Positions 33,800 to 36,145 of a stretch of 64,000 nt of DNA are shown here, piece after piece. The DNA comes from Heptranchias perlo (Eukaryota): assembly GCF_035084215.1 (NCBI RefSeq), contig NC_090364.1:4340001-4404000 (forward strand), given 5' to 3'. The position numbers and the translations under genes were made by a program. The notes below the pieces were generated by a model. That model did not search any database and was not told where the DNA came from. It worked only from the letters and a program-made list of their open reading frames with translations. How positions within the stretch are numbered: position 1 is the stretch's first letter; the number at the start of each line of letters is the position of its first letter.

Positions 33800-36145
33800 A
33801 TGGCCTCCCAAGTGTGTCAGAACTACCACAAGGAGTGTGAGGATGGTGTCAACAAGCAGATCAATATGGAGCTCTATTCCTCCTATGTTTACCTCTCCAT
33901 GGTGAGTCTTTTATTAATTGCCACTGCATTCTAAGTAGTTGGAATTTCTCCTGTTCAATAAACTGGCTCTAAAATGTGTTTCTCTTGATTTTTTTCCACC
34001 TCCCTTGGAAGACAAAGCTTTGGCCAGTGAGTACTTCCAGTGTGTAATACAGGATAATCTTGTTGAGTTAATGGACTGCTCCTTGCAGCAGCTGCACTCT
34101 ATTGAGGGGTTTAATATACTCCTGGCTGAGCTGCTGCCTGAGTTTGGAACAAATGCAGAAACCTGGTCAAGTGCTTGTCAGCATTTGTCCAATTTCAGTT
34201 TCAATGGGGTGACTGCAGTCAGTGAAATGTTGACAGGTCCTCACTAGTTTTCTTGCCTTGAGACTCCTAGTAATGAAGCTTTCTTCACTGTTCCTAGATC
34301 TCTATTACACTAAATGATTGTCCAGTGTAAAACTGCTGGGAAATGGAGTAATTGTCCCTTATTCCTCCACTAATTTTAGATTAGTATGGAGAGTAAATGG
34401 GGTACCACTGGCTCAGAAGTGAAGTTTGAGTTGAGATGAAATGTAATCCCTGACCTTAATTGCTACTTTTCTCTGATCCATTCATTATCCTATTGGGGAG
34501 GGGGAAGCTATTGACCATGTTGTGAAGTAAATTGAATTTTACTAGTAAACAAATGCTATCTAATTTCTAAAACTTTGAGCATGAATTGTATGTAGGTGAG
34601 ATCTAGGTCTGACATGATGCTGTTTTCAATATTCTCTCCACAGTCCTATTACTTTGACCGGGATGATGTTGCCCTCCGTCACTTCGCCAAGTTTTTGAAG
34701 GAGCAGTCGCATGAGAAACGGGAGCACACTGAGAAACTGATGAAATTCCAGAATCGACGTGGCGGCTGTATTGTCTTTGAGGATATCAAGGTTAGCTGTG
34801 GAGAAATATTAGTGACTGGACCACAGTTGAAAACCACATATGGCAGGACATTGGAGGAACAGACCAGGTGGAAATATAATTCCTTGAGTGCAATTTGCTA
34901 AAACCAATAGGGATAAGAGGTACAAAAGCCAAGAAGATTGTTGTGATGAGGGACTAGTTTGACCTTTCACCAAAGACCATTTCTCAAGGGGCAGAGTAGA
35001 TGAACATGAAGTTGAGAAAGTGGCAATATTGGGTTTATAGAGGATATTGTCCTTCTGTGGTTGTATTAATATAACATTGTCATACATCCTTTGCCTCAAG
35101 ATAAGTAGGGAAACATTGAAATGTCTGACTTGATATTAATGTATTAATCAATGAGAATAAAACATAACTCCTTTCATGTTGTAGGAGGTACAAGTACCAA
35201 TAATACTTGCATGTCTATGCTTACAGGTAGGGGAGTGGAATTAATTTAGATTCCTCTGTCAAATCTAGGACACATGATTGGCTGAATGGCCTGTTTTGTG
35301 CTGTTGTGTAACTAATCTTGGTGTGACTTCTTGTTTTGGTGATTTCTCATCTTTCTTTGTTCAGTTATCTGGAGTATAAACTAATCTCCATAACTCCAAT
35401 TCTTGCATGAAGTTAGCAATGAGATCACCAGATGTTCATGGAATTTTACATCTTCTGAACTTTCAGAAGCCCGAGCAGGATGAGTGGAGCAATGGTCTGG
35501 AGGTGATGCAGAGAGCTCTGCAGATGGAGAAGAATGTGAACCAGAGTCTGCTGGATCTGCACAAACTGTCCACTGAGAGGACAGACCCTCATGTAAGTTT
35601 CTAATGCCTTGTGGTATTAATATATATTTCATAACTTCAGGTTGTCTAAGCCAGTGCCATCCTTCAAACATCAGACCAAATTCTGTCCAATGGCTTTTCA
35701 CTTCTAAAGCCTGATGTACTGGATTGATTCAATTGGATGATTTTCAGTAATGAAATTCTCATTAGTAAATCTGTTTGTTCAACTTAATGGACACCTTACA
35801 ATTAGTACTGGTTTTGGTGAGGGGCAGATATCGAACAGAGATCTGGAAACAAAGCCCGGTGGGATGGTTTGGAGTAGGAGTTGACTTGTGTAATGGCAAC
35901 TTTCTGTCTCCTACTTCAATTCTAATGTGACTAGATCCTGAAAAGCAATGTGGTCAAATAGCTGCCTTAATGAAAATATCTCCCTTTCCCAGTTGTGTGA
36001 CTTCCTGGAGAGCCACTACTTGGATGAACAAGTGAAGATGATCAAGAAGCTTGGAGATCACATCACCAACCTGAAGAGACTGGGAGCCCCTGAGAATGGC
36101 ATGGGAGTGTACCTGTTTGACAAGCTCACCCTGGGGGAGGAGTGA
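33800..36145 (+). CDS. Ferritin H/M-type subunit G7 (class A, E62K variant HEKREH, C-terminus GEE)
   Basis: Exons 33800-33901, 34644-34790, 35467-35592, 35993-36145. AATAAA at 36280. Confidence 0.94.

Follow-up and report, generated by a model that had tools for sequence, protein, structure and literature searches.

The reading that we prefer, with slightly less than even confidence, is that three ferritin genes (G2, G7 and G12) in the analysed window (64,000 nt of the Heptranchias perlo genome) form a transcribed, intact and young sub-lineage whose products likely co-assemble with the active majority as predicted ferroxidase-null, tolerated filler. These genes have lysine in place of Glu62, the bridging ferroxidase ligand between the two irons. 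The novel element is a second and younger loss of Glu62, inside the active array, with exon-specific escape from homogenisation.

The window contains 12 four-exon ferritin genes (Table 1). Residues are numbered as in human H ferritin (shark position +3, the offset being taken from alignments with solved human H chains). Codon 62 is AAA (Lys) in G2, G3, G5, G7, G10 and G12 and GAA (Glu) in the other six genes; this is exactly the order E, K, K (pseudogene), E, K, E, K, E, E, K, E, K given by the sequence-only reading of this DNA. Codons read directly also bear out the motif HEKREH (K62 with H65 kept) reported for G2, G7 and G12; the motif is HEKHED (K62/H63/D65) in G5 and G10 and QEKHED in G3, which has a stop at codon 7 as well as frameshifts. 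The complete centre (E27, Y34, E61, E62, H65, E107, Q141) is thus absent from the intact K62 genes, with K62 in G2, G7 and G12, K62 and D65 in G5 and G10, and the other ligands kept. As that reading had also stated, the same AAA codon occurs under different promoters and introns: the promoter and introns of G5 and G10 do not align with those of G2, G7 and G12. The Glu-to-Lys change in the FAEF motif (K53) is present in all three genes to which it had been assigned (FTKF in G2, FAKF in G7 and G12), and G3 has it too.

Products of the array genes match PF00210. Sixteen are identical to named sharpnose sevengill shark proteins, that of G7 included (P0103). Because of the 14.5-kb duplication listed in Table 1, neither G5 and G10 nor G7 and G12 are independent, and the five intact K62 genes therefore amount to three independent entities.

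Table 1. Ferritin genes and related features of the window
Feature	Position (nt)	Strand	Details
G1	560..2673	-	intact E62 gene
G2	6821..10833	-	intact K62/H65 gene, codon 62 at 9900-9902; most divergent class-A member
G3	13473..15319	-	K62/D65 pseudogene, relative of 24 more dead copies elsewhere
G4	17129..20178	+	intact E62 gene
G5	23004..25278	+	intact K62/H63/D65 gene, codon 62 at 24147-24149; class-B promoter
G6	28329..30949	+	intact E62 gene
G7	33800..36145	+	intact K62/H65 gene; exons 33800-33901, 34644-34790, 35467-35592, 35993-36145
G7 exon 2	34644..34790	+	class-A K62/H65 haplotype: K53, K62, M70, R75
G7 codon 62	34716..34718	+	AAA (Lys) replacing GAA (Glu)
G8	39340..41962	+	intact E62 gene
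G9	44819..47569	+	intact E62 gene with class-A introns and class-A exon-2 3' end
G10	50687..52963	+	intact K62/H63/D65 gene, codon 62 at 51831-51833; recent G5 duplicate
G11	56060..58671	+	intact E62 gene
G12	61534..63878	+	intact K62/H65 gene, codon 62 at 62449-62451; recent G7 duplicate
Block G5-G6-G7	21720..36265	+	segmental duplication, 98.5-98.8% identical to 49407-63998 (G10-G11-G12)

The window lies within an array that occupies ∼4.21 to 4.78 Mb of contig C43. From 4.27 Mb on, with the whole array examined, there are 80 exon-2 copies, namely 62 E62, 10 K62 and 8 N62. The 6:6 interleaving described earlier is a true count for the window but does not carry over to the array, in which 18 of the 80 copies are K/N62; the window is the richest stretch, no 12 consecutive genes having more than six non-E copies. 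A designed K/E alternation was rejected (runs test, p = 0.07 in the window and p = 0.14 in the array), the pattern being partly due to the 14.5-kb duplication.

Genome-wide, the exon-2 pattern had 178 matches within one mismatch, and 42 copies were exact K/N62 (both counts are lower bounds): 18 on C43, 17 on C38, five on C725 and one each on C1048 and C9. Absence of K62 copies from C38 was at one point considered, as a pattern demanding His60 gave only eight K62 copies, none on C38; the wider pattern, which gave 17, removed this possibility. Open frames are present in 12 of the 42 copies. All 12 are on C43 (11 by the intactness filter, plus copy 4333 with an upstream ATG), where 12/18 K/N62 copies are open versus 57/62 E62 copies. 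The difference in breakage (6/18 versus 5/62) has p = 0.013 if counted by copy and p = 0.13 if counted by event (3 versus 4).

That the K/N62 genes are early-stage pseudogenes, seemingly constrained through overwriting of exons 1, 3 and 4 by active neighbours and through their youth, we consider improbable. This reading gains from the 30 of 42 K/N62 copies broken genome-wide, from a run of exon-1 changes, Y34S among them, in C43:4639, and from the amplification of a dead K62/D65 gene, as a passenger, at least 23 times. Still, these dead copies trace to one event. All 23 K/N62 copies on C38, C725 and C1048 are dead, with disabling lesions common with the C43:4724 pseudogene, and in four of four longer stretches read on these contigs the dead K62/D65 gene stands head-to-head with an E62 gene. 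The two, together with an E62/W63 gene, make up a cassette (L063-L095) that is present in full in all four stretches and whose dead gene occurs 23 times; the 23 copies are passengers of this repeated cassette, descended from one event. Further points against wholesale decay are the 12 copies with open frames and canonical splice sites, the exact transcripts and the exon-2 constraint described below.

Run X1 was treated as RNA on the basis of spliced joints and near-empty introns: it covers the four exons deeply and the introns hardly at all, with GT..AG joints at all three introns. One 80-nt contig (depth 1029) is identical to G7/G12 across codon 62, and a 96-nt contig (depth 848.5) is identical to G5 across K62-D65. 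The private G7 allele A34728 was not seen in X1, and the exact 80-nt contig may stem from G12. Contig depth was taken as evidence of presence only, being a poor measure of expression; with this reservation, X1 covers the array far deeper than do X6 and X7 of the same sample, and the K/N62 share of depth in X1 is 2,717/71,478 (3.8%) at likeness 80 versus 7,963/25,902 (31%) at likeness 88 on G7, two values that are mutually inconsistent. In run X2, from another organism, codon 62 has G in 84,025/84,025 and 276,379/278,940 of depth. Contig C9 has a processed retrocopy of a class-A K62 gene (L059:4860-5230) that is frameshifted, has no introns and is followed by a LINE-like frame; it points to germ-line transcription of a class-A gene. 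In the Greenland shark, the largest ferritin cluster is described as ovary-specific in passages of Sahm et al. (bioRxiv 10.1101/2024.09.09.611499). The possibility that K62 copies are silent, on which the sequence-only reading was to stand or fall, is countered by the exact X1 contigs and by the constraint on these genes.

This constraint was measured as pN/pS (Nei-Gojobori proportions). The mean is 0.23 in the 11 intact K/N62 genes and 0.22 in 52 E62 genes; within class-A exon 2, which is unconverted, it is 0.27, or 0.24 without codon 62. The class-A K/N62 lineage is under purifying selection. All 11 intact K/N62 genes retain E27, E61, E107 and Q141; one of them has Y34S, and H65 is kept in eight; the only three intact D65 genes include two that derive from one duplication.

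Exons 3 and 4 of the K/N genes are 98-100% identical to those of some E62 gene, while exon 2 is 89-93% identical. Relative to the E62 consensus, the class-A K/N consensus differs at 16 of 147 positions in exon 2 versus 3 of 366 elsewhere (p = 5e-7); the two largest E62 intron classes, in comparison, differ from each other at none of the 147 exon-2 bases. In exon 2, class-A K/N genes lie at a synonymous distance of 0.30 from E62 genes. The corresponding values are 0.04-0.16 in 15 intron classes of E62 genes, 0.17 in G5/G10 and 0.19 in the three E62 genes whose introns are of class A.

Such a peak would fit positive retention of the K/N62 lineage: its products would be non-catalytic subunits, comparable to L chains or FTHL17, that adjust the oxidation rate, the mineralisation or the stability of oocyte ferritin, and selection would purge conversions that restore Glu62. 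We regard this as possible, though less probable than tolerance. It has in its favour the escape of exon 2 alone from homogenisation, with clean E62 controls, purifying selection within that exon, transcription in X1, retention of E57, E61 and E64, and the fact that none of 13 class-A K/N copies reverted to E; the same substitution is also found in 30 of 30 listed carpet-shark members of an older lineage, in lungfish L-like chains and in FTHL17. Against it, the differences span nt 43-133 of exon 2 and are not centred on codon 62, their 3' part being common to the E62 genes G9, 4413 and 4708. In addition, the flanking introns are unhomogenised in every class, unlike in the opsin model case as presented in sections of PMC3924837, where a divergence peak under conversion is read as selection and where conversion is also said to stop as substitutions accumulate. 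Lysine itself is not conserved (N62), breakage is higher in K/N copies, and the 12 open copies are a small minority of the 178 pattern matches genome-wide. Picking genes by codon 62 enriches for unconverted exons. The exon-2 peak is thus suggestive of selection but not decisive; class-A exon 2 may simply have drifted beyond the similarity needed for conversion.

To polarise the exon-2 differences we used 151 array-type proteins of other sharks and rays, consisting of cluster representatives and listed members only, with large clusters (138, 180, 127 and 69 members) sampled 15 members at a time. Of the 151, 143 have K or R at position 75, 141 have M at position 70 and 145 have E at position 53; therefore R75 and M70 are retained ancestral states, and Q75 and K53 are derived. 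The earlier claim that all intact K62 genes change QNQRGG to QNRRGG holds as a description (5/5) but not as a change accompanying K62, and M70 was rejected as a companion change in the same way. The R75 codon differs between groups (CGA in G2, G7 and G12, CGG in G5 and G10), one K62 gene just outside the window retains QNQRGG, and four intact E62 genes carry QNRRGG. From these states we infer that class-A exon 2 split off before Q75 and L70 spread through the other copies.

The exon-2 tree, for which codon 62 was masked, unites 14 rows in a single clade (support 98; the alignment is short and the bootstrap had not settled in one run): G2, G7, G12, 4639, 4652, eight N62 copies and the C9 retrocopy. 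Introns agree across the class-A K/N copies, and an intron-1 cluster of 12 is all K/N62. The N62 codon, AAC, is one step from AAA; N62 is found in eight of the 13 C43 class-A K/N copies, among which W63, D65 and one Y34S occur as well. G5/G10, G3/4724 and 4333 are placed among E62 exons, so that K62 is present on at least three genetic backgrounds, and both exon-2 tree and introns agree with the earlier proposal that the K62/H65 genes are a lineage distinct from the K62/D65 genes.

It had also been proposed that E62K either arose twice or spread by gene conversion. Parsimony requires three changes at codon 62, yet a single clade of all 19 K/N rows is not rejected (AU p = 0.37), so that a single origin stands beside the two options, and our data lean towards the second. 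Copies 4333 and G10 have the class-A G at nt 66; on C43 this base is absent from all 58 other E62 copies, but C38 has it too. The class-A nt 45-46 are present in G3 and 4724, while none of the five non-class-A K62 copies has the class-A nt 51 or 97. Flanking class-A alleles in four of these five copies lean towards short conversion tracts. Codon 62 showed no sign of a mutational hot spot or of excess recurrence: at least three changes occurred at 12 of 35 comparable exon-2 sites, and three changes are ordinary for this exon. G9, 4413 and 4708, with E62, class-A introns and a class-A exon-2 3' end, may be K62 genes converted back, G9 being either chimeric or in the ancestral state; intron trees do not resolve whether they reverted. 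In the scenario that we favour, E62K would have arisen in the class-A ancestor before L70 and Q75 spread through the other copies. The class-A K62 clade spread by block duplication and later gave rise to the N62 and K62/W63/D65 forms; conversion tracts shorter than about 50 bases probably carried K62 into G5/G10, G3 and C43:4333.

No orthologue of the class-A K/N62 genes was found among the 151 proteins, in which the sawshark is the only hexanchiform or squaliform relative included. There are 145 E62 proteins, one with K (P0013, a sawshark protein with deletions), two with N (P0161 and P0283), one with D, one with G and one with a gap; none of the six non-E62 proteins has the class-A T/A-K-F-F motif, and in the protein tree, which includes two of the six, P0013 and P0161 group with sawshark copies. 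A search with a short protein fragment yielded no shark K62 fragment among the 10 of 20 matches read. A K62 private to this assembly, named earlier as a reason to give up the retention idea, is partly borne out, within this limited sample. In the same protein tree, array genes of H. perlo nest with their counterparts in other sharks (array clade 99/92, starred; same-species clade 97/91, starred).

The same species also has an older K62 lineage (P0060, P0152 and P0154, with R or C at position 65; two were located at C43:8.70 Mb), which is found in carpet sharks as well; there K62 is present in all 30 listed members of clusters P0222 (15/76), P0160 (13/13) and P0159 (2/2), and H65 in 29 of the 30. 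This lineage groups with lungfish L-like chains (94/99, unstarred). It resembles the window genes in K62 and tandem amplification but is only ∼72-75% identical to G7, falls in a separate clade and, in the carpet-shark members, has E141 where the window genes have Q141. By these comparisons G2, G7 and G12 are not orthologous to it.

Other changes at the ferroxidase centre were observed nearby. At the left array end, a divergent ferritin (G000:C43:4209094-4217811, minus strand; L005/L006/L062) has T61, A62, Q107 and S141 by alignment, and its exon-2 motif occurs as loose ends in runs X1 and X7; from its residues it is possibly another centre-less chain, perhaps L-like. Intact flanking genes at G000:C43:4257259-4261137 and 4780013-4782441 have K61/Q65/T144 and N65, respectively. 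Copies with E62D (HEDWEH) lie at G000:C38:11646006, 15596720 and 16139725; the one that was read is open. Met144 is carried by 64 of the 66 intact C43 genes and by 138 of the 151 other-shark proteins, at a position that is Asp in frog M chains and Ala in human H; it may alter the second iron site across the whole array. In turtles, ferritin paralogues with Lys61 (P0037, P0051-P0054 and P0066, one cluster of 21 members) hint at parallel erosion of the centre in another amplified family.

Tandem ferritin expansion in sharks is already published, as 'FTH1b' (Yang et al. PNAS 2026, PMC13214024) and as 'FTL/FTH1' clusters (Sahm et al., bioRxiv 10.1101/2024.09.09.611499). The window genes belong to the same gene family and array type and differ by the Glu62-less sub-lineage. 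The word 'ferroxidase' occurs 0 times in the main text of Yang et al., and active-site residues are absent from the passages of both papers that were available; our literature searches gave nothing on active-site loss in shark ferritins, though subscription articles and the supplementary material of both papers may bear on it.

A close parallel is FTHL17 and the mouse Fthl17 family, described in parts of PMC7760355 and PMC13149808 as H-like, with E62K, no ferroxidase activity, expression in germ cells and multiple copies in mouse; a role of a null ferritin in stem cells is also reported (PMC13149808, in part). According to sections of the review PMC7760355, E62K alone suffices to abolish activity in FTHL17, with the other ligands largely kept, and the shark K62 genes have this same combination. 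FTHL17 is, however, X-linked, has D61, is partly nuclear and has low stability (same partial sources), whereas the four-exon shark genes retain E61 and are surrounded by active paralogues. In a protein tree without FTHL17, the shark array genes form a clade apart from mammal and bird H chains. The shark genes and FTHL17 are of independent origin. E62K is further known from excerpts on an atypical sponge ferritin (PMC8395497).

With FTL and the lungfish 'light chain, oocyte isoform-like' protein P0155 the window genes share K62 and a predicted place as non-catalytic partners of active chains; on the inner surface, E57 (an FTL nucleation carboxylate), E61 and E64 are present. Unlike FTL, they keep E27 and mostly H65, have H60 and not E60, and are without an IRE; they nest inside the active array clade and not with L chains. 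Position 65 has lost His in P0155, and human L has Y27/G65, but such further loss is not seen in the shark K/N genes (E27 in 11/11, H65 in 8/11). The carboxylates E57, E61 and E64, and H60 in place of E60, are common to the E62 genes and so are not a gain. In the parts of PMC13411386 that we used, E60, E61 and E64 are included among the nucleation carboxylates of FTL, H and L chains are said to co-assemble in any ratio, and nucleation takes place on L. A solved-structure search with P0155 returned M-chain alignments only.

Rfam found no IRE in the window; a full one is present at L009:3490-3525, upstream of a canonical-type gene at the array edge. The class-B 5' UTRs (window 22942-22992 and the equivalents before G6, G8, G10 and G11) have an IRE-like remnant with a CAGAG loop and a broken stem, and no Rfam hit. 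Contig C43 also has a glycogen synthase gene, at G000:C43:237864-281949; human FTL adjoins GYS1. The 4 Mb between the shark gene and the array were too great a distance for a synteny argument.

The sequence-only reading had inferred graded subunits of three types (intact, K62 and K62/D65) from a 6:6 order. Spelled out as a model, K62 would keep residual activity, K62/D65 would be null, and ∼1:1 interleaving would set cage composition. All three sequence types are open in the window, both K types were seen in X1, and the fully characterised laboratory null, the engineered human H E62K/H65G(/K86Q) that serves as the standard null in sections of PMC4029007, changes both residues. The shark genes share E62K with it, but by a natural change, with H65 in class A and D65 in G5/G10. 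We find graded types very unlikely. The 1:1 ratio and the alternation are products of local duplication, intact D65 genes are few, and N62 and K62/W63/D65 forms exist beside the three types. Because E62K alone is reported sufficient in FTHL17 (PMC7760355, in part), K62/H65 and K62/D65 subunits are both probably null and not graded.

Tolerance remains the preferred reading. By analogy with FTHL17 and the E62K/H65G mutant, K62 subunits would be unable to oxidise iron; in a 24-mer made mostly of active chains they would cost little, and selection would keep the fold and not the active site. Our reasons for ranking it above positive retention are the replacement of K62 by N, the erosion of nearby residues, the higher breakage and the lack of an orthologue among the proteins compared. 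Counted against it are the strong class-specific divergence of exon 2 and the unchanged E27, E61, E107 and Q141 in all 11 intact genes. The lineage is a young, convergent variant with predicted null subunits, and selection for it is plausible though unproven.

Shark ferritin expansions are being read as added iron-detoxifying capacity, with reference to ferroptosis and longevity. Some array copies are predicted inactive and 30 of 42 K/N62 copies are not intact, so that counting copies overstates function. Should the null lineage be under selection, E62, K62, N62 and K62/D65 genes would make up a natural near-isogenic series (G7 is 91-94% identical to its array relatives) in which to test why vertebrates repeatedly evolve non-catalytic chains, such as the L chain, FTHL17 and the carpet-shark family. 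In that event the lineage would also provide a clear example of an exon that escapes concerted evolution. It is conceivable, though we would not bet on it, that this shark has re-invented a light-chain-like, ferroxidase-null subunit within an amplified active (oocyte-type) array, with selection shielding only the active-site exon from conversion, in a genome that already has an older K62 lineage and another centre-less ferritin. If so, the H-to-L transition would have been replayed recently, and a single genome would show its K62, N62 and D65 steps together.
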